Shown: positions 3,165-35,740 of the stretch, one piece after another
Numbering within the stretch: the first letter of the stretch is position 1
Layout: each line of letters opens with the position of its first letter
Origin: a virus
Lineage: Duplodnaviria; Heunggongvirae; Uroviricota; Caudoviricetes
Strand: one strand, 5' to 3'
Virus record (IMG/VR): IMGVR_UViG_2721755724_000003
Length of the DNA: 36,875 bases
Program-made: the position numbers and the translations under genes
The notes under the pieces: model-generated
What the model was told of the DNA's origin: nothing
Databases searched by the model: none
The model's input: only the letters and a program-made list of their open reading frames with translations

Positions 3165-4268
3165 TCATTCCATTTCGAAATCATCAATCCTCACTTCAAG
3201 CTCCAGACTGGTCGTAAAACCGTTATCCGGGCTGACGGTATGTGTCAGGGTGGTAATGGTCCATTCCGCATCATCTATCGGCTGTTTAAAACCACTGACC
3301 TTCACAGACATTTCCGTGTAGAGATCTGCCCGCCCTTCTGCCAGTTGTAGAGAAAATGACGCAACGCCGCGTTGCAGGCGTTCCCACTGCATTTTCGCCG
3401 CTCGTTCGGCGTTGCTCCGGTTGGCATAGGTGCGATTAAGTACCAGCACGTTTTCATCCGTACCCACCAGGTAATCGCCCTGCTTCGCTTCTGGCTCTTT
3501 CTTCTGCTTCTTAGTTCTGCGCTTACGCTTCACCGTGGTGCTTTCTTTCTTCGCAGGTTCGCGGGTATGCAACCAGCTGGCAATTACGCCCGTGTAGGCT
3601 CCGCGATCTGCCAGGGTAAATCGGTGACTGTCGCCGTCCTTGCGTGTGATAGTGATCACTGGCAGAGGTTTACCAGTGGCGCTTTTGCCCTGCCCCTGCC
3701 GGATGAATAACAGATTGCCATTTTTCACCGACGCGATGGCACCGTACTGTCTCGCCAGCCGCATCAGAAAACTGCCGTCACTCTCATTAGTCTGGTCTAT
3801 ATGCTCCACGGGCTTATCCGACAGGTCTTTACCCAGTGCCATCTTCAGCTTGTGCCGCGCGGCAATTTCCTGCACCACTTCCCCGACGGTGGTCTTATGC
3901 CACGATTTTTCACGGCGGGTATTCAGCGTTTCCCGAAAATCAGCACTTCGCGCCCGGATAGTCAGGCGGTCCGGTGCGCCAGTGTGTTCAATCTCGTCCA
4001 CTGTGAATGCCCCTTTCGGGAAAAGCGGCTGCCCCTTCCAGCCCAGCGCCAGCGTAATGACCGCACCACGGCGCGGCAGCACGATTTTTCCGTCAGCGTC
4101 ATCCAGCTCCAGATCAAGCTGGTCCGCTTCAAAGCCCCGGTTATCCGTCAGCGTCAAACTCATCAGGCGGTTATCCAGCACAGTGGTGATATCCCTGCCC
4201 TCAATACTGATGCTGAATGCGGGAGTTTTGTTGCCTTTGTTAAGCAGTTCAGAGCTGAAATTCACCAC
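3165..4268 (-). CDS. D: tail protein D (P2 gpD-like)
   Basis: 367-aa ORF in the gpD position between ogr and U; P2 synteny and size. Confidence 0.8.
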   Translation of the reverse strand: MVNFSSELLNKGNKTPAFSISIEGRDITTVLDNRLMSLTLTDNRGFEADQLDLELDDADGKIVLPRRGAVITLALGWKGQPLFPKGAFTVDEIEHTGAPDRLTIRARSADFRETLNTRREKSWHKTTVGEVVQEIAARHKLKMALGKDLSDKPVEHIDQTNESDGSFLMRLARQYGAIASVKNGNLLFIRQGQGKSATGKPLPVITITRKDGDSHRFTLADRGAYTGVIASWLHTREPAKKESTTVKRKRRTKKQKKEPEAKQGDYLVGTDENVLVLNRTYANRSNAERAAKMQWERLQRGVASFSLQLAEGRADLYTEMSVKVSGFKQPIDDAEWTITTLTHTVSPDNGFTTSLELEVRIDDFEME

Positions 4269-4747
4269 AGCAGCCCTCCCACCGTTTTACTGATATCGCT
4301 TAAGGCAGACGTTGCCGTGTCCTGCAGATTATTCAGTTGCGCACTGAGATCACCGAACATATCGGACAGGGATTCATCCACTCGTTTGAGCGACAGGGTG
4401 AACTCAATCCGGCGCGGCATACCGTCGCGGAAAAACTCCGTTTTAGTCTGATTCAGTCCCTCAATCACATACATACCGTAAATCGTGCCGCTGCCTTCAA
4501 TCAGGGGCCATGCTTTCCCCTGTTCTGCCATCTGCTCCAGTGCCAGCAACGACAGCCTGCCGCCTGTTATCTCCGGCATAAGAACACCGGAAAGCGTCAG
4601 CATGTCGTTTTCCGGTCCCAGAAACTGCGTGGACGGACGTCGGTTTACCCGACTGTTTGCCGCATGTCGCCAGCTGCGTTGATACTGCAGTTCCTGATAC
4701 GGCACGGTGCGCAGCATAAACACGTACAATCCCAGCACCATCATCAT
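4262..4747 (-). CDS. U: tail protein U (P2 gpU-like)
   Basis: 161-aa ORF between the tape measure gene and D; short overlaps with both neighbours. Confidence 0.8.
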   Translation of the reverse strand: MMMVLGLYVFMLRTVPYQELQYQRSWRHAANSRVNRRPSTQFLGPENDMLTLSGVLMPEITGGRLSLLALEQMAEQGKAWPLIEGSGTIYGMYVIEGLNQTKTEFFRDGMPRRIEFTLSLKRVDESLSDMFGDLSAQLNNLQDTATSALSDISKTVGGLLW

Positions 4748-7700
4748 GCGTCGTATCCCCCCTGATCGCTGTAGTTACTCCTGGCTTTTGCCTTCAGCCT
4801 GCGTTCACGTTCATCAAGCTGGCGTGCCACCTCCCGCGCAATATCCTGCGCACTTTGTCCTGGCTGCGTCTGAATGATGATCTGCGTCGGTGCCTCAATC
4901 CGTTGAACGAGCGGCACAGTGGCTGCGCGACTCACAATTGCTTCTCCACCTTTCGCGGGAAGTGCCAAAGGGTGCAACGGTGGAAGCTCTGCTGGCGCGG
5001 CAGCAACGCCCATCATTCCGGCAACAACGGCAGCCAGTGCAGCTGTATTTCTCCGGCTGGTCACATTTGCCGGGCCGTTAACAATTTCCGGCCCGTTTTC
5101 ACCGACGATGCCAAACTGCCCGCGCGGGATATACCCGCCGCTGTCATACATCCCCGCAAAGCCATATCCCCATGATGGAAAACCACCCGATGGCATCATC
5201 ACTTTACCGTCTGCATTCACCGTCGCAGGTTGCTGACGCGTCACGCTTTCCGGCAGTTTTGCCTTTGCGGCCTCTTTACTGACAATGCCGAGCTTCTCCA
5301 GCAACCAGGAAACGCCGGATTTCAGGGAGTCCAGCGGATGCATGACCATATTCAGCCCTTCCGCCAGTGCCTCCCCGAATCGCCGCCCCATTGCCGCTGC
5401 GCTCTGCAGTTCGGCAGAGGTCGACTTAACGGGCGTCAGCAGATCAGTAAACCAGCCCCACAGCGCCTGCACTTTGTCGCCAATCCACTGGAACACGGGC
5501 TTAAGCGGTTCGAACGCTGCACTGATGGGACCTGCCGCCGCTTTGAATCCTTCCACCACGCCACCGAGAAATGCGGTGATGGGTTGCCAGTATTTCCAGA
5601 CAACCAGCGCCACGCCCGCCAGTGCAGTAACCACAAGACCTATCGGACTGAGCAGAGCACCTAACAGACCAGATATGGCATACAGGGCAACGCGCAGCAT
5701 CGCCAGTGGACCAGATGCCAGTACTCGCAGCACCGTGCCTGCGGCGGCCAGTCCACCGCGCAGTACCGCCAGAGGATTCATAAACATCACAGCAACAGCA
5801 CGTAAACCGGATAATCCAGACCGCAAAAGTGCAACCGGCGCACCTGCTACAGTTTTCAGGACATTTCCCGTCAGTGATGCCGTGCGGCGCAAAGACGACA
5901 ACGGCGCAGTAAGTAAACCTGCGGCGTTGCCCGATGAAGCAAGCCCGCGTCGCAGCAGTGCCAGTGGTGCGCCAGCCAGCCAGGACAACGCGCTGCTGGT
6001 TCGAGTTACTGCTGCCGTAACGGAAGATAACGTTTTGATACCCAGCACAGAGAATCCCAGACGGATCACTGCCAGCGGCCCCAGCACTGCAGCCAGCGCC
6101 ACCGCTAAGGTGCCGAGGCCGACGGTAACCGCAGCCACAACAGCCGATGCTTTCATCAGTGTGCCTGTCAGTTCCGGGTTAGCTTCCACCCAGCGACGCA
6201 ACGCTCCCGTGACGCTTTTCACCGTGTACAGAATATCCATCAGCGGCTGGCGCAGCGTTTCGCCCAGGCTGCTGAAGGTGTTCTGCGCTCCGGTTTTGAC
6301 CAGCAACCACTGCGCAGAAAGTGAATCCTTGTTAATGTCGGATTCTTTCTGCATGGAGCCGAGCGCATCATTGCCCGCTGTCAGTTTTAACTGACGCTGC
6401 AGTTCCGGCAGGTTGTTTGCCAGTTTCGCCGCGTCATCGCCAAACTCTTTACCAAACAACATAGTCATGGCAGACAGGCGCTTGTCCTGCGGCAGCGCGT
6501 TTACCTTCTCCAGCACGCGCTGGATGGTTCCCATCGCATCCTTCGTCATCTGCTTTTCAATCACTTCAGGATTGAGTTTCAGCAGATTCATCCCTTCAAA
6601 GAAACTTTTGCTTTGCATGGTGGCAATGGACAATTCACGCACCATCGCGTTTGCTGCACTGGCTGCAACCTCTGGCGCAGCGCCCAGTGTCAGGAAGGTG
6701 GAACCCAGCGCCGCCGCTTTACGATAATCCAGACGGTCAGCCACACCGCCCAGACGTTGCATCACATCAATGATGTCTGCCCCTTTCGACATGGCGTTAT
6801 CATCCAGATAGTTCAGCGCATCACCGAGCTGTTCAATATTGCGGGTGGGGATTTTGTAGAGCTGGGCGATTTTCCCCAGACTTTCTGACAGTTCATCCGC
6901 TGGCAGCTCAAAGGCTGTTGCCGCCTTTGCTGCCGTACTGGCGAAGGCCAGCAGGTCACGTTTCTGATCTTCCCAACTGTCGTCAGGGTTTGCGACGTTC
7001 ATGCGCGCACCACCTTCAACCAGTGCAGCGAAATCCACCGCACCGTTTTCCATCGGCAACTGTTCGCTGGCAGCCTTGATGGCATCCTGCATTTCATAAA
7101 AACGTGCAGTGCGGTTGCCATTATCGTCACGCAGACCATTGACCTGCTTTGCCACACCTTTCATGGCATCTTCCATGCTGGTATAGCTTTTTACTGCCGC
7201 CATCACTGGTGCGCCCATTGCCAGCCCTGCAGCCGTGGTGGTGGCTCCGGCACCTGCAATACGATCACGCACCTCCAGCGAACGGGCATAACTGGCACGC
7301 GCTGCATTCATCCTGCGCTGAGCTTCCCCCAGTCGCTTCAGCCGCGCCTCCTGTTTCGAAAGTTCCTGGTTATAACGTGATGTTTCACGGGCTAAACGGG
7401 CAGTTGCTCCCGCATCGTCTTTCGCAGAAATTCCCGCCCGGTACAGTTCAGCACGCACAAGCGCCGTCTGCTGCTGCAGCTTTTTCTGGCGTTCTTCCAG
7501 GCGCTGAACAGCCAGCCGTTGACGGCCCAGAGCAACAACCTGACGTTGCGAAGGCGGCCCCATCGCTCCCAGTTCCTGACTGAGCAAATTTGCACGCTGG
7601 CGGGCATAGTTCAGCCTGTCGCCTAATTTCTGATTTTCTGCCTGCAGCTTTCGGAAGCTGTCCAGACTGCTCCCGGCCTGATCAAGCTGCTTTATTGCAT

Positions 7701-7821
7701 CGCGGGATTTTTTGACAGCAGCAGCCAGTTCTCTTGAACTGGCCTGCGCAGATCGAAATGGGCGGGTGAGCTTGTCAACCGCATTAAGAATGACCTGCAG
7801 ACGCAGGTTGTTATCACTCAT
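4744..7821 (-). CDS. T: tail tape measure protein (P2 gpT-like)
   Basis: 1025-aa ORF with coiled-coil-like N-terminal part and repeated Gly/Ala/Leu hydrophobic motifs (PLAxLRxGL-type), typical of tape measure proteins; correct position after E/E'. Confidence 0.85.
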   Translation of the reverse strand: MSDNNLRLQVILNAVDKLTRPFRSAQASSRELAAAVKKSRDAIKQLDQAGSSLDSFRKLQAENQKLGDRLNYARQRANLLSQELGAMGPPSQRQVVALGRQRLAVQRLEERQKKLQQQTALVRAELYRAGISAKDDAGATARLARETSRYNQELSKQEARLKRLGEAQRRMNAARASYARSLEVRDRIAGAGATTTAAGLAMGAPVMAAVKSYTSMEDAMKGVAKQVNGLRDDNGNRTARFYEMQDAIKAASEQLPMENGAVDFAALVEGGARMNVANPDDSWEDQKRDLLAFASTAAKAATAFELPADELSESLGKIAQLYKIPTRNIEQLGDALNYLDDNAMSKGADIIDVMQRLGGVADRLDYRKAAALGSTFLTLGAAPEVAASAANAMVRELSIATMQSKSFFEGMNLLKLNPEVIEKQMTKDAMGTIQRVLEKVNALPQDKRLSAMTMLFGKEFGDDAAKLANNLPELQRQLKLTAGNDALGSMQKESDINKDSLSAQWLLVKTGAQNTFSSLGETLRQPLMDILYTVKSVTGALRRWVEANPELTGTLMKASAVVAAVTVGLGTLAVALAAVLGPLAVIRLGFSVLGIKTLSSVTAAVTRTSSALSWLAGAPLALLRRGLASSGNAAGLLTAPLSSLRRTASLTGNVLKTVAGAPVALLRSGLSGLRAVAVMFMNPLAVLRGGLAAAGTVLRVLASGPLAMLRVALYAISGLLGALLSPIGLVVTALAGVALVVWKYWQPITAFLGGVVEGFKAAAGPISAAFEPLKPVFQWIGDKVQALWGWFTDLLTPVKSTSAELQSAAAMGRRFGEALAEGLNMVMHPLDSLKSGVSWLLEKLGIVSKEAAKAKLPESVTRQQPATVNADGKVMMPSGGFPSWGYGFAGMYDSGGYIPRGQFGIVGENGPEIVNGPANVTSRRNTAALAAVVAGMMGVAAAPAELPPLHPLALPAKGGEAIVSRAATVPLVQRIEAPTQIIIQTQPGQSAQDIAREVARQLDERERRLKAKARSNYSDQGGYDA

Positions 7822-8250
7822 CGTTGGCCCCGCTTCTCTGAATCGCTTTATACCGCCATTCCAGCACTTCGGTCAGCGGCATAACGTCAGTAACGGATGG
7901 CGGCCAGTGAAAAATGGTGGCGATATCTGCCACCAGATCGTCAACCGTCAGGCTGTCGGTAAACCGGCAAGCACCGACTTCTTCAACAAAAAAGTGACAA
8001 CCTCAACCGACATGGCAGTGAGATCTGCCGGGTCCATCTCTGCAATTTCCTGTGCAGTCAGTGCCGGACTGGAGATGCGGGGGATCACGATCATCATCGC
8101 GTTTACATCCATATCCATAATGGCCTGCAGGCGTATACCGCGCAGCGCACCGGACTGCGGTTTACGCAGCACAATTTCGGTGATTTCTGTTTTACCGCGC
8201 TTGATGGGGGTATCCAGTTGAATGGTCTTTTCAGTCTGCTTATCGCTCAT
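7814..8250 (-). CDS. E+E' tail chaperone fusion made by programmed -1 frameshift
   Basis: Minus-strand T TTT TTG at 7987-7993; the -1 frame stays open for 57 codons to a TGA at 7814-7816 that overlaps the T start codon, as in P2 E/E'. Confidence 0.7.
7948..8250 (-). CDS. E: tail assembly chaperone E (P2 gpE-like)
   Basis: 100-aa ORF directly upstream of T and ending ...TFLLKKS...; contains the slippery heptamer TTTTTTG near its 3' end. Confidence 0.8.
   Translation of the reverse strand: MSDKQTEKTIQLDTPIKRGKTEITEIVLRKPQSGALRGIRLQAIMDMDVNAMMIVIPRISSPALTAQEIAEMDPADLTAMSVEVVTFLLKKSVLAGLPTA
7987..7993 (-). other. slippery heptamer for the E/E' -1 frameshift
   Basis: Forward caaaaaa is TTTTTTG on the coding strand, in frame as T TTT TTG within E. 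Confidence 0.7.
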
Positions 8251-8304: not shown

Positions 8305-8820
8305 TCAGAGGCCGAGGGCGTTGCGGTGCGCTTCCATCAGGTCCACACCGTCCACAATTTCCACCATGTTGATAAGGTCCACTTCATAGAGCACCTCACC
8401 ATTGATGGTCAGCTTCGCGTAGCTGTTGGTACTGGTCACTTTGGTGGTGTTGCTTTCGCCCGTCTTCCACTCGCCGGAATCCACTTCTTTGTGACGTCCA
8501 CGCACGACAAGCTCCACGGCCTGCACTTCCCCGGTATCGTCACGCTGAATAGAGCCGGTAAAGCGCAGCTGGATGCCATCCACCGTGGCTTTACCCATCT
8601 GTTTAAACAGCAGCAATTCAGTACCACCAATGGAAAATTCTGTGTCCAGCGCACTGTCATCAAGCCCCAGATCCACATCCACCGCACCCGGCATTCCGCC
8701 GCCGCGATACTTCTCATATTTGCGGGTAAATTTCGGCAGCGTCAGCGACTCAACGATCCCCTGCCAGTTGTTCCCGTCGTTAAACAGGTTCAGGTGTTTT
8801 AATTTGCGTGGTAAAGCCAT
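8305..8820 (-). CDS. FII: major tail tube protein (P2 FII-like)
   Basis: 171-aa ORF between the sheath gene and E; P2 synteny and size. Confidence 0.85.
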   Translation of the reverse strand: MALPRKLKHLNLFNDGNNWQGIVESLTLPKFTRKYEKYRGGGMPGAVDVDLGLDDSALDTEFSIGGTELLLFKQMGKATVDGIQLRFTGSIQRDDTGEVQAVELVVRGRHKEVDSGEWKTGESNTTKVTSTNSYAKLTINGEVLYEVDLINMVEIVDGVDLMEAHRNALGL

Positions 8821-8829
8821 GTTGTCCCC

Positions 8830-10002
8830 TTACGCGCTGACCTGGCTGGCGAAATTCACCAGGTACTGATCGGTGATGCGCTGACGCAGCATCAGGTTTT
8901 CAAGTGGCGGCACTGGCGTGTAGTCGTAGTCGATGGTGAGTTTTCCGGCTTTCAGCGTGTCTTTGTCGTTCACCGACTCATCCAGCCAGCAATCACCACC
9001 AATGAGATAGCCCTGACTGACCAGGCTGCGCATTTTGGCGCGGATACCTTCGATAATGTCGCGGGCCAGCGACGGGTTAAGCGGTTTATCCACCGCCCAC
9101 ATGTGTGCTTCTGCCATCGTGTCCATCAGCACCTGCGCCGTGCGGGTGTAGTTTTCGAAGGCAAAGAGCGGGTCATCACTCAGGCAGCGGGAACCCCAGA
9201 AGCGGAAACCGTCTTTACGCACAAGCGTGGTGACGTCGTTCTGGTTCAGCAGACCTGCATCGGTTGCCGGGTCCTGCAGATCCCAGAACACATCTGCAGA
9301 AATTCCGGTGACACCGTTCACGCCCACGTTGGACAGGCTTTTGTGCCATCCGGTCTGCTCGTCAATTTTGGCGCGCAGACCAAGCGCACGGGCGGTGGCA
9401 TATGCCGTTGCTTCGGCATTCAGCACCGTGTCCCAGCCAGTAAAGTCAGGCCAGATCAGCATCCCTTCGCGCTGGCTGAAGTTTTCGCGGTAAGTGATCG
9501 CCTCCTGCACTGTCTTGCAGCCATACGCTGACAGGTAAGCAAATCCACGCAGGCTTTGCGCCACGCTCAGCAACTCAGTAGCTACCGCCTTGGTGTCGTG
9601 GCCTGGCACGCCGAGAATGCGCGGTTTAACGCCGAGCTGTGACTGGGCAGATAACAGGGCTTTCATACCTGTTTTTTTACCTTCAGCAGTCACTGCGCCG
9701 ATGATATTGGTCGTGGTTTCGTCTTCCGTTTCACCCTGCGGCACACGCACAACAATGGTCACGGGTTTTGCCTGGTCAGCGATGGCATCCAGCGAACGGG
9801 CCAGAGTACCGGACTCACCCGCTTTACCGCTGGCAGTCAGCACATCAGTGATCAGCACGGGTTTATTAAGAGGAAACATTTTTGCATCGGCATCATCGCC
9901 CGTGCAGACCATACCCACGATGGCGGTGCTCACCGTGGTAATAGATCGGGTGCCTTCGTTGACTTCAACAACGCGCACCCCGTGGTGGTAATCCTGAGCC
10001 AT
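8830..10002 (-). CDS. FI: contractile tail sheath protein (P2 FI-like)
   Basis: 390-aa ORF upstream of FII; P2 FI is about 396 aa. Confidence 0.85.
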
Positions 10003-10144: not shown

Positions 10145-10717
10145 TCAGGGAGATTTATTGCTCTTATTTGCCGGAAATTTTCGATAAATGGTAGAAACGC
10201 CTACATCAAAAATCAGTGCAATACGCTGTCTTGATTCTCCGGCCTCGAGTAAACGTCCAATCTGTGCCCACTGTTCAGTGGTCAACTTAGGACGGCGTCC
10301 ACCTACTCTGCCTTTAGCACGAGCTGCAGCCAGCCCTGCCCGGGTACGTTCAACTATCAGTTCGCGTTCCATTTCAGCCAGGGCACCCATGACATGAAAA
10401 AAGAAACGGCCCATTGGGGTACTGGTATCAATACTGTCAGTCAGGCTTCGGAAATTCACACCACGCTGGCGCAACTCTTCTATCAGCGTAACAAGATGCC
10501 GCATACTGCGCCCCAACCTGTCCAGCTTCCAGACAACCAGCGTGTCTCCTGCCAATAGTGTCCTGAGCAGTTTTTTAAGCCCCGGTCTGTCGGACTTAGT
10601 GCCACTGATTTTGTCCTCAAAAATCCGCTCACATCCCGCGCAGTTCAGCGCATTACGTTGCAAATCGGTGTTCTGGTCATTTGTTGACACGCGTACATAG
10701 CCAATAAGCATGATCAT
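10145..10717 (-). CDS. serine DNA invertase (Hin/Gin/Cin/Pin family)
   Basis: 190 aa; N-terminal GYVRVSTNDQ catalytic-serine motif, VVWKLDRLGRS, and C-terminal HTH; very close to Hin/Gin as I recall them. Confidence 0.9.
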   Translation of the reverse strand: MIMLIGYVRVSTNDQNTDLQRNALNCAGCERIFEDKISGTKSDRPGLKKLLRTLLAGDTLVVWKLDRLGRSMRHLVTLIEELRQRGVNFRSLTDSIDTSTPMGRFFFHVMGALAEMERELIVERTRAGLAAARAKGRVGGRRPKLTTEQWAQIGRLLEAGESRQRIALIFDVGVSTIYRKFPANKSNKSP

Positions 10718-24199: not shown

Positions 24200-25261
24200 T
24201 TAATATTCAAAATTATTTTCTTCAATAGAGAACTCAATCCCTCGGGATAACTTATCAATATTCACATCAAATGCGATATCTGTTAATTCACCATCCTCGA
24301 TTTCATACATAACTTCAATTTCAATATCGAAACTAATCTCTTGAACTTCAGTTCGTGTGGTTGTCTCCATTGGAATCATTACTTTATCTTCGCTATCCCA
24401 ATACCCATTATTAAAGTCTGGACCAGAAACAGTAACTTCAAAATCTACAGAAACAGAGAAGGTCGCTAGACAATAATTATTGTCAATCTTAATTATTGAT
24501 GGTTCAAAGTCATCAATATTGACGACTTCAAATGAATCCAATTCAGCGTCTTCCCAAGTTGAAACGTTATATCCATCGGCATCATTGAGTTGGGCAATTA
24601 CGTCCGCTCTTATGTCTTCACGTTTGCTTTCGATAAACTGCATCAATTTATTACTTAATTCGTTTGTATGCGTATTGTATTCACCTAGAAACTTATCAAG
24701 TGAATCAATTTGATGAAGATTGTTTTTACCATCACAATAATTTTTTAAGTCACTATCCTCAGAAATGATATACACATCTTCATCATTAACAAATCGCTCT
24801 ACCGCAGCTAAAGTGATTGCATCAGGAAACTCACTTTTTTTCTTATTTTGCCCAAATGGTGGTTCTTTGCCAAAGTATTTATCTAAAACCTCATTAAGAT
24901 CTATCACTTCTATTGTAGCTAATTTGGCGTGACATCCTTTCAAAAAATCATCAAAAACTTTTTGTGCTGCTTCGTGAATTTCATGTTCGTTAAATTGCTG
25001 AAAAAAACCATGGAGCGGTCCATTATCAATACTATTCAAAAGCCTAGCTTTTCTTTGTACTGTGTTTATAGCCTGCAGAGCATCCTTTATTGATTCCTCT
25101 ATTTTACCTTTTACTTCTCTCTCTACAACTGTAGTTGTAATTAAGACTAAATCACCTTTCGCACATAATTCATGGAAAGCTTTAAATGCTACCCCCTCAA
25201 AATGAAGACCAGCCTTTACGTACGTTTGTGTGTCAATAAATACCTTATTTGTTTTAAGCAT
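24200..25261 (-). CDS. unassigned cargo protein, PIN-like N-terminal domain plus acidic C-terminal domain
   Basis: 353 aa, AT-rich; N-terminus carries PIN-like acidic positions (VFIDTQTY, LITTTVVEREV, YIISEDSDL); the C-terminal 130 aa or so are strongly Asp/Glu-rich. Confidence 0.55.
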   Translation of the reverse strand: MLKTNKVFIDTQTYVKAGLHFEGVAFKAFHELCAKGDLVLITTTVVEREVKGKIEESIKDALQAINTVQRKARLLNSIDNGPLHGFFQQFNEHEIHEAAQKVFDDFLKGCHAKLATIEVIDLNEVLDKYFGKEPPFGQNKKKSEFPDAITLAAVERFVNDEDVYIISEDSDLKNYCDGKNNLHQIDSLDKFLGEYNTHTNELSNKLMQFIESKREDIRADVIAQLNDADGYNVSTWEDAELDSFEVVNIDDFEPSIIKIDNNYCLATFSVSVDFEVTVSGPDFNNGYWDSEDKVMIPMETTTRTEVQEISFDIEIEVMYEIEDGELTDIAFDVNIDKLSRGIEFSIEENNFEY

Positions 25262-25387
25262 ACTAATCCTAATAAGTTTTAAGATCCGCTACAATTGTTT
25301 ATGTTTATTTTTTATCAATAATCATACGTAGTTAAGATTATCCATGTCGAAAAATTAAATCAACTTCAATTTATCCTTAAGCGCGCG

Positions 25388-25406
25388 CTCGTATCCCCGC
25401 CACGCC
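25388..25406 (-). other. candidate cos (cohesive end) site
   Basis: Minus strand reads GGCGTGGCGGGGATACGAG; the first 13 nt match my recollection of the 186/P2 cohesive end (GGCGTGGCGGGGAAAGCAT), and the orientation relative to Q is as in P2. Confidence 0.5.
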
Positions 25407-25728
25407 TGCCCGCTTTATGTAGTGGTTTTCATGCACCTGCATGTTCTACGTAAAAGCCCGCTAGTTCTGGCGAGCCTTAGCAAAAACGATCCTTAAACGA
25501 TCATGCGATTTCATGCAGCATAGTCATGCACTGTCTAAGAGAAGTGAAAGTCCGTATCTGAATGACCACTTGAAAAACGAAACATACAGACTTACAAAGA
25601 TGAAGCTCTACTGTGAGCGAGGAACATACATAGTTGCTCTGTAATAGCCAAATTTTAAGCAGGAAATCTCTTTTTTATGACAAAACTATAAAGAAAAACA
25701 GACCGTTTCATCGCTCGATGAAACTATA

Positions 25729-27306
25729 CTACAATACTTTTCTCTCGATGGTATTTTTAATGGTCAACATATCTTTAGGAATACTTTTTTTCCCCTCTAT
25801 ACGTATGGTAAACACAAAAAGAATAACGGCTGATCTCACAATTTTCATGAGTTGTAAGAGCTGTTTCTCAAACTTTTCTTTCTCAATAAATCTCACCTCA
25901 TCAAAAAATCCATAAGAATTATATAAATCAACTAACATGTCTTTCTCGTGAATAACTAACAGTTTATGTTCTAAATCATTCCTCCATTCTTTAAAAAAAG
26001 CAAGCTCACCATTTTTATCATTCAAATCCATAGCAATACTAAACAAACCCAGCAATCCTTTATTATTTATTTTGTTTATTTTAAGCTTTCTTTTTTCATC
26101 ACTAATCCGCCAGAAGTTATGAAAGTATATATGTCCTCTATCTGGTTTTAAATCAAATAATTGACACAGAGCAACTGCTATTTTATCCAAGATACCAAAG
26201 CAAGCTCTAAATGCAACCCTTAACTTCTCAACATTTTCATACAATATTTCTCCATTATACAATTCAGAATAACATACCTCCGAATCCTCATCAAAAAACT
26301 CACTATCAACCTTATATTCAAAAAACATTTTTCGTGCTAAGGAATACTCAGCTTTAAGTCTATTTAACACCATTTCCATTGGCACTATAAAATCACCAAA
26401 CACACCTTCCTCGGTGGTCGCAATAGTTATATTATCTTTAGATGACGCATAACAATTGCAATATAGCGAATGATCAGACAACATTAGATTATTATCTATA
26501 CAAAACCTCTGGTAGTTTGATAAAGTATCATACTCCTCCTGCGTGAGCCTTTCATCTGTACTTATATCCTCTATGCCATATACACATGATTCACTCAATA
26601 TACTTTCGTTGTACTTTATTTTTCTTTGAAGAGCAACCTTCCATGAAGGAAAACATTTCCCTGACTTTATTGCACACTCATAACCTCGAATAACTTCTTT
26701 AATCATTTTATATGTATATGTTGTAGATAATTCATTAAGCAATTCTAATGCCTCAGATCTGTTTACCCACGCCTGAGGAATTGAGTTATCAATAGATATT
26801 GCTTGTTCATAATAATCCATTGATTCAGATATACGATATTGTTTTTTTAATACATTAGCTAGATTAACTATTAAATCAGGGGGCACCCATCCATCTTCTT
26901 GTGAAAGTTTAAACGCTTTCCAGTAATTATTTTTTACATCATTCAGCTTAATGAAACTATCAATATCTGCATTGTCATTAGGATTAAAATCAAGAACTGC
27001 GCTCATTCCATTTGCCAAGTTATAGTAATATAAAGATTCTTTCATTATAGTCAGAAATTCATTTTTATTGTTTATAAAGATATTTAAGCCTTCCTCCGCT
27101 ATATTTTTTACATTACTAAAATTTCCGATATCAATAAGATTTCCGGCCAAATTAGATAATATAATTATTCTATTTTCTTTGATTGTATTTATCTCATCGA
27201 TACCGTTAAGAATATCCTTTACATTTTTATAGGCAGAATCAAATGAACCTGCATTAATAAGATCATCTACGAACCCCATTTTTGAAACAACATAGTTGAT
27301 ATCCAT
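25729..27306 (-). CDS. unassigned cargo protein, TPR-like N-terminal region plus C-terminal HEPN-motif region
   Basis: 525 aa, AT-rich; TPR-like stretch (YYEQAISIDNSIPQAWVNRSEALELL) and C-terminal EWRNDLEHKLLVIHE matching the HEPN Rx4-6H signature. Confidence 0.55.
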   Translation of the reverse strand: MDINYVVSKMGFVDDLINAGSFDSAYKNVKDILNGIDEINTIKENRIIILSNLAGNLIDIGNFSNVKNIAEEGLNIFINNKNEFLTIMKESLYYYNLANGMSAVLDFNPNDNADIDSFIKLNDVKNNYWKAFKLSQEDGWVPPDLIVNLANVLKKQYRISESMDYYEQAISIDNSIPQAWVNRSEALELLNELSTTYTYKMIKEVIRGYECAIKSGKCFPSWKVALQRKIKYNESILSESCVYGIEDISTDERLTQEEYDTLSNYQRFCIDNNLMLSDHSLYCNCYASSKDNITIATTEEGVFGDFIVPMEMVLNRLKAEYSLARKMFFEYKVDSEFFDEDSEVCYSELYNGEILYENVEKLRVAFRACFGILDKIAVALCQLFDLKPDRGHIYFHNFWRISDEKRKLKINKINNKGLLGLFSIAMDLNDKNGELAFFKEWRNDLEHKLLVIHEKDMLVDLYNSYGFFDEVRFIEKEKFEKQLLQLMKIVRSAVILFVFTIRIEGKKSIPKDMLTIKNTIERKVL

Positions 27307-33499: not shown

Positions 33500-33624
33500 G
33501 ATGCAACATTCCTCTTTTAGCAATGATTAATCAGGATGAATACTGATCGTTTGTATTATGTGAACACTGCAAACATACGATCACATCATGAAATCGTCAA
33601 GGTAAAAGTTCACTTGGAGTGACC

Positions 33625-34188
33625 ATGAATTTGGAAAAAGGCGGTCGTGGGGCCATAGAGCGCATGGTTGAAGCCTATGGTTTCAAGACAAGACAAGCTT
33701 TGTGTGATCATTTGGGCATTTCTAAAAGCACCTTAGCCACGCGCTATATGCGTGATTCATTCCCGGCAGAATGGGTAATCCAATGTGCACTTGAAACCGG
33801 CACGTCGCTAGAGTGGCTAACTACTGGGCAAGGTTCAAAAGAAAGTTCACAAAAAGAAAACACAAAAGAGATCGAAAGGAAGATTTTATCAAGCGGAAAA
33901 CTACTTCCTGATGGTTACTACATTTTCGACAACAACTTTTTGCCTGAAAAACTAAAAAAACCTTTTGTTGTGATCGATGGCGCATCAGAGTTTATCTGTG
34001 ATTCGGATTATGAGGATGTACGTGATGGTAAGTGGATCGTTGATATTGATGGCGAGGTTGCTATCAGGAATCTGACAAGACTGCCGGGACGTCGTCTAAA
34101 TGTCGATGGCGGCAGCAGTTCCTTTGAATGCAAAATAGATGAAATTGATATCATAGGAAAAATTAGAAGCGCGATCGTCAATTATTAA
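33625..34188 (+). CDS. cI: 186-type CI immunity repressor
   Basis: About 187 aa with an N-terminal HTH ([20 protein letters not shown]) and a C-terminal domain; start at ATG 33625 with GGAG upstream (the ORF track opens at GTG 33619). Confidence 0.75.
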
Positions 34189-34397: not shown

Positions 34398-34408
34398 GGT
34401 TGCTTCAT

Positions 34409-35740
34409 ATGAATAATGATATGACTTTTGAAAACAGAGATGAGTATAATAGAAAAATCATTGCTGAAAAAATAATAAGCTTACTCGAGTCCCCCTTAAA
34501 AATATCCCCTATTGTTATCGATGGGGACTGGGGTACCGGTAAAACCGAATTTTCAAAAAAATTAGCGGCATTGATTGAAAAAAATGAATCTGGGCATAAA
34601 GTAGTATATATTGATGCATTTACTGAAGATCATAATGATGCTCCCATACTTACTATAATGGCTGCAATAGTTGCATTATATCCAGAGAGTGAAAAGAAGG
34701 AATTAATATCAAAGGCATTACCAGCATTGAGATTTGGACTTAAAACTGTACTCAAAGCTGGCGCTGGGTGGATTTTAAAACAAAATGCAGATGATATTGC
34801 GGATGAATTCGAAGATGCTATTAAAGATGCGGCTAACTCAGCTATAGATGGTACTGTAGAAGCACTGCTTGATGATCATATTGAAGCAAAGAAACATTTG
34901 CTTGCTCTCAAGGAAGTACTTGCTGAACTAACTAGCGAAAATAAAATAACAATTATCATTGACGAACTTGACCGTTGTAAACCAAGCTTTGCCATCTCTA
35001 TCATCGAAAATATAAAACATGTTTTTGACACTGAAAATCTTAACTTCTTGTTAGTTGCTAACATCTCACAATTGAAAGCATCAATAAATCATATTTACGG
35101 TGCAGGTGTTGACTCAGAAAGATATCTTGATAAATTTATAAAATTCACTTACAGCCTGCCAGTGACTTTCACTGAAAACAATTACGATAAAATTTTGGCT
35201 TCGAACTCTCATTTTAGAATGCTATGTAACGAGTCTGAAAGACTAAAAGAAATTGGAGAAAGTAGTATTCATATAGTTCAAAAATTTATCGAACTAAAAG
35301 GCTTGTCGCTACGGGAAGTTGAAACCTTATCAAGATATCTAGAAATTTATCAAATTTTATCTCAAAATGAAATCAGCAATAAATTTATACCAGGCTATTG
35401 CTGTTATCGAACCCTTGCAGTAATTCTTTATTCGTTTGGTCGTGAACTGGCCCTTAACTACGTAGAAGATAAAATAGATGCACAATTAATAATCAATTTC
35501 TTCGGTGTTAATAGACTCCCATATCAGACAGATCAATATAACATCAACATCTACTATTATGCATTATTTGGTATAACTTATAAATATATGCCAGAAGGTT
35601 CTCCTTTACTTCCTTCTGAAAACGATGAAAAAAACAGATGGGCTGAAATAAGTGATTATCATATTTTAAAAGGAAATGCAGGTGTAGAAGACCCTGTTAG
35701 AATATTCAAAAACACCTTAAAAGTTTTCTTGCTCCAATGA
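34409..35740 (+). CDS. KAP-family P-loop NTPase
   Basis: Walker A GDWGTGKT, a YIDAF motif after it (KAP proteins have NAW-like motifs there) and Walker B IIIDELDRC; AT-rich; sits between cI and int. Confidence 0.7.
   Translation: MNNDMTFENRDEYNRKIIAEKIISLLESPLKISPIVIDGDWGTGKTEFSKKLAALIEKNESGHKVVYIDAFTEDHNDAPILTIMAAIVALYPESEKKELISKALPALRFGLKTVLKAGAGWILKQNADDIADEFEDAIKDAANSAIDGTVEALLDDHIEAKKHLLALKEVLAELTSENKITIIIDELDRCKPSFAISIIENIKHVFDTENLNFLLVANISQLKASINHIYGAGVDSERYLDKFIKFTYSLPVTFTENNYDKILASNSHFRMLCNESERLKEIGESSIHIVQKFIELKGLSLREVETLSRYLEIYQILSQNEISNKFIPGYCCYRTLAVILYSFGRELALNYVEDKIDAQLIINFFGVNRLPYQTDQYNINIYYYALFGITYKYMPEGSPLLPSENDEKNRWAEISDYHILKGNAGVEDPVRIFKNTLKVFLLQ

Follow-up and report, generated by a model that had tools for sequence, protein, structure and literature searches.

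On the minus strand of the IMG/VR virus record IMGVR_UViG_2721755724_000003, a stretch of 36,875 nucleotides from a member of the Caudoviricetes (the whole of which is called the window in the following), genes for a tail sheath, a tail tube (FII), a tail assembly chaperone (E), its out-of-frame extension (E'), a tape measure protein (T) and the U and D proteins follow each other in the order found in phage P2 (Table 1); in the collinear annotated genome of Escherichia coli APEC O18, D and ogr come next. The subject of this study is the pair E and E', which occupies the slot between FII and T in an operon of the FETUD type, as it does in P2. The E protein is recognized by the Pfam model Phage_TAC_7 with a score of 68.1 bits (cutoff 25), and the family text speaks of 'tail assembly chaperone proteins E, or 41 or 14'. 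Gene E contains one TTTTTTG only; this heptamer lies 12 codons ahead of the E stop codon, and its TTT and TTG are codons 87 and 88 of E, the X_XXY_YYZ phase of a tandem slip site. From the heptamer, the -1 frame is open for 57 codons with the translation VEEVGACRFTDSLTVDDLVADIATIFHWPPSVTDVMPLTEVLEWRYKAIQRSGANDE, and it runs 45 codons past the E stop up to the start of T. The full E+E' coding sequence (CDS) would be complement(join(7814..7987,7987..8250)), with G7987 read twice, and would specify a protein of 145 amino acids. A preliminary description of this DNA had placed the heptamer near the 3' end of E on the minus strand and had put the length of the open -1 frame at 57 codons; both statements are exact on the sequence. 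It had also described the TGA closing this frame as overlapping the ATG of T, which needs to be amended: the TGA lies 2 nucleotides beyond that ATG (ATGAGTGA), and it is the two open reading frames (ORFs) of E' and T that overlap, by 8 nucleotides.

Read as one protein, the two pieces resemble the corresponding P2 product across their junction. We rebuilt the P2 gpE+E' query from the reference genome (NC_001895) by the same -1 rule, which yielded 142 amino acids, the published length. BLASTP aligned the fusion from the window with this protein at 49% identity over 139 amino acids (E = 4e-51), and the alignment passes through the junction without a gap (...VVTFLVEEVGA... here, ...VVGFLVAELGA... 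in P2). Within the fusion, residues 107-143 match the Pfam family Phage_P2_GpE (9e-19; 67 bits, cutoff 23), and the match to PHROG 1756 covers residues 85-145 and spans the junction. No solved relative of E or of E+E' was found in the PDB, and no NCBIfam model matches the fusion. The comparison with P2 E/E' drawn in the preliminary description is borne out by this alignment and by the P2 reference record itself, which gives E+E' as a two-piece joined CDS, places a misc_feature 'site of -1 translational frameshift' right after the same heptamer, and terms E and E+E' essential tail proteins; the records of phages KS5 and PSP3 are likewise annotated with a joined frameshift product. The locus in the window is the orthologue of the textbook recoding site of P2, and its biology is in this sense already known. 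Publication and annotation of the frameshift that produces E+E' in P2 date back to 2002 (Christie et al., 2002, J. Bacteriol. 184:6522, as cited in PMC3091744), and P2-like phages are known to conserve it. Judging from the comparisons of sequences set out here and below, we put the probability that a programmed -1 ribosomal frameshift at T_TTT_TTG makes both E and E+E' in the phage represented by the window at roughly 0.93.

The heptamer is preserved among relatives of this phage. A tblastn search with the fusion protein returned 425 phage records, of which 388 cover at least 80% of the query at one place, and among the matches listed the hit falls into two pieces in 57 of 60 cases, which is consistent with two reading frames. 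In 15 of 17 phages of different genera (P2, SEN8, ENT90, KS5, PSP3, SEN5, phiCTX, phiE202, a Zymomonas plasmid-prophage, and the Klebsiella, Halomonas, Ralstonia, Aeromonas, Vibrio and 'Microcystis' phages), either T_TTT_TTG or T_TTT_TTT stands in phase at the aligned position; the other two carry a different canonical heptamer in phase, G_GGA_AAG in a Mannheimia phage and A_AAT_TTT in Xuanwuvirus. We also scanned bacterial genomes, one per species, with an alignment of five enterobacterial fusion sequences and kept 80 of 337 confirmed relatives. Automatic scoring detected an in-phase T_TTT_TTN in 71 of these 80 loci, and five more show an in-phase T run on inspection. One further locus is a partly deleted E gene that retains the FL/FF residues of the junction, and two are cut by contig ends. 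A locus of its own kind is found in Candidatus Symbiopectobacterium sp. (L053; NZ_PEHF01000066.1, ~800-1214), where a short deletion at the junction has brought E and E' into one frame (…IAIARFFDAEITAGDLPRSLTVDELMADIAVIFHW…), so that a frameshift would be dispensable and E would not arise as a separate product; a decaying prophage of a symbiont, an assembly error in a homopolymer, or a fixed fusion could each account for it.

What is preserved at this position are nucleotides. Across 88 distinct sites, the codon before the slip site invariably ends in T although it specifies any of ten amino acids (T, G, N, L, S, Y, F, D, I, V), and the Phe codon in the P site is TTT in all 88 and never TTC. 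The codon in the A site is TTG in 72, TTA in 10, TTT in four and TTC in two of the sites, and never CTN. The last base of the heptamer differs among relatives (G, A, C or T), as expected for the Z position. By this comparison, selection acts on the nucleotides of the heptamer and not on the amino acids that it encodes, and the pattern matches what a tandem slip of two tRNAs requires.

A run of six T residues, extended to seven in some relatives, might also be read with error by RNA polymerase, and bacterial cases of slippage by this enzyme on stretches of A or T are known (Atkins et al., 2016; PMC5009743). An extra U added to the transcript would allow E+E' to be made by normal translation, and for the sequence in the window our analysis does not separate this transcriptional route from the ribosomal one. 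Nevertheless, we regard it as very unlikely. Efficient slippage of the documented kind needs about nine A or T residues (PMC5009743), and six is short in comparison. The X_XXY_YYZ phase, which polymerase slippage does not demand, is kept in 88 of 88 sites, a count that is confounded by the homology of the sites. The heptamers of the Mannheimia phage and of Xuanwuvirus contain no homopolymer run, yet they are canonical heptamers for tandem slippage, and because these two relatives carry them, slippage of the ribosome rather than stuttering of the polymerase is favored for the family as a whole.

The frame in which E' is read, and the point from which it is read, can be judged from substitutions. 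We used for this purpose 24 relatives that can be aligned without gaps and share 83-98% DNA identity; since they are not phylogenetically independent, the Fisher p-values given here ignore kinship, are optimistic and should be taken as indicative only. In E, variation falls mainly on third codon positions (mean pi 0.345 vs. 0.067 and 0.042 at the other two), and upstream of the heptamer 71 of 85 third-position columns are variable. This freedom is lost in the 36 nucleotides of overlap that follow the heptamer, where only 3 of 12 third-position columns of E vary (pi 0.079; p = 8e-5). Such suppressed variation is, as far as substitution patterns can tell, the signature of a segment read in two frames. 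Within E', third positions are variable in 19 of 37 columns as compared with 11 of 75 at the other positions (p = 8e-5). The 17 nucleotides between the E stop codon and the GTG at position 7933 (7950-7934) already show this periodicity: the third positions of the E' frame vary in 6 of 6 cases, the second in 0 of 6 and the first in 2 of 5 (third vs. other positions, 6/6 vs. 2/11; p = 0.002).

These observations bear on the manner in which E' is commonly annotated. In RefSeq records whose DNA is identical or 99.7% identical, and in many phage records as well, a separate gene of 39 codons begins at GTG 7933, and under this reading E' would be a free-standing gene and the heptamer incidental. The codon aligned with this GTG is ATG or GTG in most relatives, and the Pfam model PF06528 (Phage_P2_GpE; 37 positions) starts at the very same residue. 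Still, we hold a free-standing E' gene to be highly improbable. The best duplex of the GTG region with the anti-Shine-Dalgarno (anti-SD) sequence reaches -2.5 kcal/mol, which is about background (mean -1.95 kcal/mol; E start -4.0 kcal/mol, T start -7.0 kcal/mol), and the value at the aligned start is near 0 in most relatives. The aligned codon is not a start codon in the Ralstonia (GCC), Vibrio (TAC), Mannheimia (ATT) and 'Microcystis' (ATC) phages, and from GTG 7933 back to the preceding stop the -1 frame offers no start codon. Residues N-terminal of the GTG are conserved in the -1 frame (FF.AE.G and V-D/E-D). The 17 nucleotides 5' of the GTG would be noncoding if the gene were free-standing, yet they carry the third-position periodicity of E', the synonymous sites of E hardly vary within the overlap, and selection on the nucleotides of the heptamer would be left unexplained. 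Moreover, E' of P2 is treated as an extension made by frameshifting in the reference record as well as by Lynch et al. (2010; PMC3091744). Because synonymous variation is lost in the overlap, periodicity is present 5' of the GTG, no SD sequence stands in front of this codon and relatives have non-start codons in its place, the -1 frame is, on this comparative evidence, translated from the heptamer onward and not from GTG 7933. The combination of wobble-base invariance before the heptamer, synonymous loss in the overlap and periodicity 5' of an annotated start provides a cheap test by which a frameshift extension can be told from a small independent ORF.

The position at which PF06528 begins deserves a remark in its own right. 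Its first position corresponds to fusion residue 107, the start chosen by ORF callers (window position 7933), and the definition of this family seems to have inherited a mis-annotated N-terminus. PHROG 1756 (74 positions), unlike PF06528, reaches across the junction.

Chromosomal prophages of E. coli APEC O18 and of other strains carry this region with 100% identity, and Escherichia phage 500465-1 (Peduoviridae, Wadgaonvirus) carries it with 99.7%. Among 5426 complete E. coli genomes, about 1000 contain similar DNA (at least 80% identity), and 294 records reach an identity of at least 99%. Positions 1-24095 of the window are collinear with the APEC O18 prophage, which is sited between ybjL and rcdA. 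In the records of APEC O18 and 500465-1 (RefSeq/PGAP), a 'phage tail assembly protein' (E) is followed by a separate 'GpE family phage tail protein' of 39 amino acids. In a collection of ~15 billion proteins, this 39-residue product is present on ~994 contigs and E on 372, and the exact fusion of 145 amino acids was not found there. The expectation of the preliminary description that annotation based on ORFs would miss the fusion thus holds, as identical DNA is split in RefSeq and the exact fusion has no entry among these proteins. By the comparative evidence given above, the free-standing 'GpE family' gene in RefSeq is wrong for this lineage. The practical value of our analysis lies in this point of annotation, since the locus is mis-annotated in about 1000 E. 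coli genomes; the biology is unchanged by it, and what is added is a correction of the annotation and a small lead on an SD-like element upstream of the heptamer.

The heptamer as such is common in the window. TTTTTTG occurs 23 times on both strands against 12.2 expected, and 53 in-frame heptamers of the X_XXY_YYZ type are found within ORFs of at least 100 codons, spurious ORFs counted. We accordingly dropped the bare heptamer count as a test of significance. Significance is derived instead from the combination of the heptamer's position, the extent of the -1 ORF up to the start of T, the family match and the conservation of the nucleotides in relatives. It is scarcely credible that the -1 ORF is open by chance or is what remains of a decayed gene, with no product: several other in-frame heptamers in the window do precede long open -1 frames (most of these ORFs being antisense or nested and spurious, or running into an overlapping downstream gene), but E' matches a curated family, is conserved from Vibrio to Burkholderia, shows purifying selection in its own frame, and is present in copies of 100% identity in many E. 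coli genomes.

Several observations nonetheless weigh against a programmed ribosomal frameshift at this site. The 60 nucleotides 3' of the heptamer fold with -16 kcal/mol, which is no excess over shuffled sequences (z = -0.06), and RNAalifold found no consensus structure in 43 relatives. According to Atkins et al. (2016; PMC5009743), ribosomes in E. coli shift far less readily on U_UUU_UUA and U_UUU_UUU than on A_AAA_AAG, so that a modest rate would be expected unless the site is stimulated. An RNA element, instead of dual coding, could in principle account for the loss of variation in the overlap; none was detected.

When the downstream segment is extended to 90 nucleotides, the fold reaches z = -2.05, a value owed to a hairpin more than 50 nucleotides away. 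Neither folding nor RNAalifold revealed a stem-loop or pseudoknot of the dnaX type 5-9 nucleotides past the heptamer. We rejected as a candidate a 6-bp stem located 8 nucleotides 3' of the heptamer (GUCGGU...ACCGAC), which is present in this clade; in the 43 relatives 76.6% of the cells are paired, covariation is weak and many pairs are broken. In line with this, Lynch et al. (2010; PMC3091744) saw no hairpins in three P2-like phages of Burkholderia, and for P2 their article refers to Xu et al. (2004) for a like absence.

A stimulator might instead be sought on the 5' side. An anti-SD duplex of -6 kcal/mol or stronger lies upstream of the heptamer in 75% of the 88 sites, with a peak at GAGGT, as compared with 7% of background 20-mers. 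At the GAGGT spot, the Glu codon is GAG in 62 and GAA in 4 cases, compared with 148 and 382, respectively, elsewhere in the same genes (p = 2e-26, without correction for phylogeny). SD stimulators 5' of the slip site are established for dnaX and for many insertion sequence (IS) elements (PMC5009743). The GAGGT of the window may conceivably be a selected 5' element that tunes the ratio of E to E+E' through the anti-SD sequence of the translating ribosome, a tentative suggestion that we find doubtful as it stands. In dnaX, the SD-like element reportedly lies about 10-14 nucleotides 5' of the heptamer. Because the spacing in the window is shorter than in dnaX, we keep GAGGT as a candidate modulator and do not count it among our findings. 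If the suggestion were true, the frameshifting of P2-type tail chaperones, usually described as proceeding without stimulators, would have one after all.

For a programmed -1 ribosomal frameshift at T_TTT_TTG, the following course of events can be proposed. Ribosomes would initiate at the ATG of E (8250), and the majority would reach the E stop codon (7950-7948) and release the E protein of 100 amino acids. In a minority, the tRNA-Phe that occupies the P site (UUU) and the tRNA-Leu in the A site (UUG) would slip back by one nucleotide and re-pair on UUU UUU; these ribosomes would read 57 codons in the -1 frame and produce the E+E' protein. By analogy with P2 and with lambda G/GT, the E part shared by both products would bind T, the tape measure protein, and recruitment of the tail tube protein would fall to the E' domain. 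The sequences show the anatomy of the locus, the homology of both parts to the P2 proteins, the selection on the heptamer and, through substitution patterns, the translation of the -1 frame from the heptamer onward; the slip in this phage, the rate at which it occurs and these protein interactions are what we infer. A single start codon combined with a single slip rate would, again by analogy, fix the ratio of the two chaperones. In P2, E' is reportedly essential, and the shift rate is said to be about 10%.

P2 is the system closest to the one described here. Lynch et al. (2010; PMC3091744) give the P2 shift at TTTTTTG with products of 91 and 142 amino acids. Both phages have in common the slot between FII and T, the phase of T_TTT_TTG, the aligned residues G/T-F-L and an extension of 57 codons; the stop codon of E' follows the T start codon after 2 nucleotides in both (ATGAGTGA here, ATGAGTAA in P2), and a conserved downstream structure is absent in both. 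The junction ATGAGTRA between E' and T is shared by the phage of the window, P2, SEN8, ENT90, PSP3 and the Klebsiella phage, and this spacing of stop and start codons is compatible with translational coupling, so far as the sequences indicate. The two phages differ in the length of E (100 amino acids here, 91 in P2), in the zero-frame tail past the heptamer (12 vs. 6 codons), in the length of the fusion (145 vs. 142 amino acids) and in the size of T (1025 amino acids here; the annotated P2 T gene has 2448 nucleotides, ~815 amino acids). The genus here is Wadgaonvirus-like, and the copy in the window is known from sequence alone.

The pair gpG/gpGT of phage lambda (Levin et al., 1993; Xu et al., 2004, 2013, 2014; summarized in PMC5009743) follows the same logic: a short and a long product share their N-terminus, their ratio matters for assembly and has to be fixed, and neither of them is present in the virion (PMC5009743). 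A class of lambda G/GT-like tail-chaperone frameshifts is described in PMC3091744 and PMC5009743, and the window contains the features by which it is defined, namely an overlapping pair of ORFs flanked by the major tail gene and the tape measure gene, a -1 frame for the second of them, a canonical heptamer and no independent start for the second ORF. There is no detectable sequence similarity to the lambda proteins; lambda uses G_GGA_AAG and has a non-contractile tail, and the domain roles proposed above rest on analogy. E. coli dnaX is similar in its tandem -1 slip on a homopolymeric heptamer and in the presence of an SD-like element upstream. It differs in having A_AAA_AAG and a 3' stem-loop, whereas the heptamer in the window is U-rich and less shift-prone and no conserved 3' stem-loop follows it; the spacer between the SD-like element and the heptamer is 6 nucleotides here and about 10 in dnaX, and the shift lengthens the product here, whereas it truncates that of dnaX.

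Table 1. Positions of E, E' and neighboring tail genes, and of the elements discussed in the text, in the 36,875-nucleotide window.
Feature	Position	Strand	Remarks
Gene E, zero-frame product, tail assembly chaperone	7948..8250	minus	ORF of 100 amino acids; Pfam Phage_TAC_7 (6.7e-19); PHROG 103 'tail protein' (1.3e-43)
Slippery heptamer T_TTT_TTG, putative -1 tandem slip site	7987..7993	minus	Phe87 in the P site, Leu88 in the A site
E' extension, -1 frame	7814..7987	minus	57 codons (7987-7817) and stop TGA (7816-7814)
Dual-coding overlap	7948..7986	minus	Last 12 codons and stop of E (frame 0); first 13 codons of E' (frame -1)
GTG used by RefSeq/PGAP as start of the 39-residue 'GpE family phage tail protein' (7933-7814)	7931..7933	minus	Judged not to be a real start
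Shine-Dalgarno-like GAGGT, candidate upstream modulator	8000..8004	minus	6 nucleotides 5' of the heptamer
Tape measure gene T	4744..7821	minus	1025 amino acids; Pfam PhageMin_Tail (2e-18); ATG 7821-7819
Tail tube gene FII, directly upstream of E	8305..8820	minus	Pfam Phage_tube (8.8e-60)
Tail sheath gene	8830..10002	minus	Pfam Phage_sheath_1
Gene U (gpU)	4262..4747	minus	Matching Pfam family

Some further features of the window were noted in passing. A G_GGG_GGA stands in phase at positions 4756-4762 of the minus strand, three codons ahead of the stop codon of T. Gene U lies in the -1 frame of T with an ATGA overlap, and a slip at this place would yield a T-U fusion; the occurrence of this heptamer at the end of T is probably due to chance.

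Two AT-rich ORFs on the minus strand (24200-27306), in the variable region that adjoins the portal gene, have no counterpart in the APEC O18 prophage, which is otherwise collinear. The first specifies a PIN_12 domain protein of 353 amino acids (1.5e-25) and the second a protein of 525 amino acids with TPR and LA2681-like HEPN domains (1.8e-38); the pair look like defence or toxin cargo. On the plus strand (34400-35740), a KAP-family P-loop NTPase of 446 amino acids matches the PADLOC candidate defence system PDC-S20 (1.1e-171). Its gene is positioned between that of a CI-type repressor (33619-34188) and that of the integrase (from 35823), where the window and the APEC O18 prophage differ. Finally, a serine DNA invertase of the Hin/Gin type (Resolvase and HTH_7; 1.2e-52) is encoded on the minus strand (10145-10717) between the tail sheath gene and the genes for the tail fibre and its assembly. 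Its location suggests an invertible segment that would determine host range, a segment that P2 does not have at this position.

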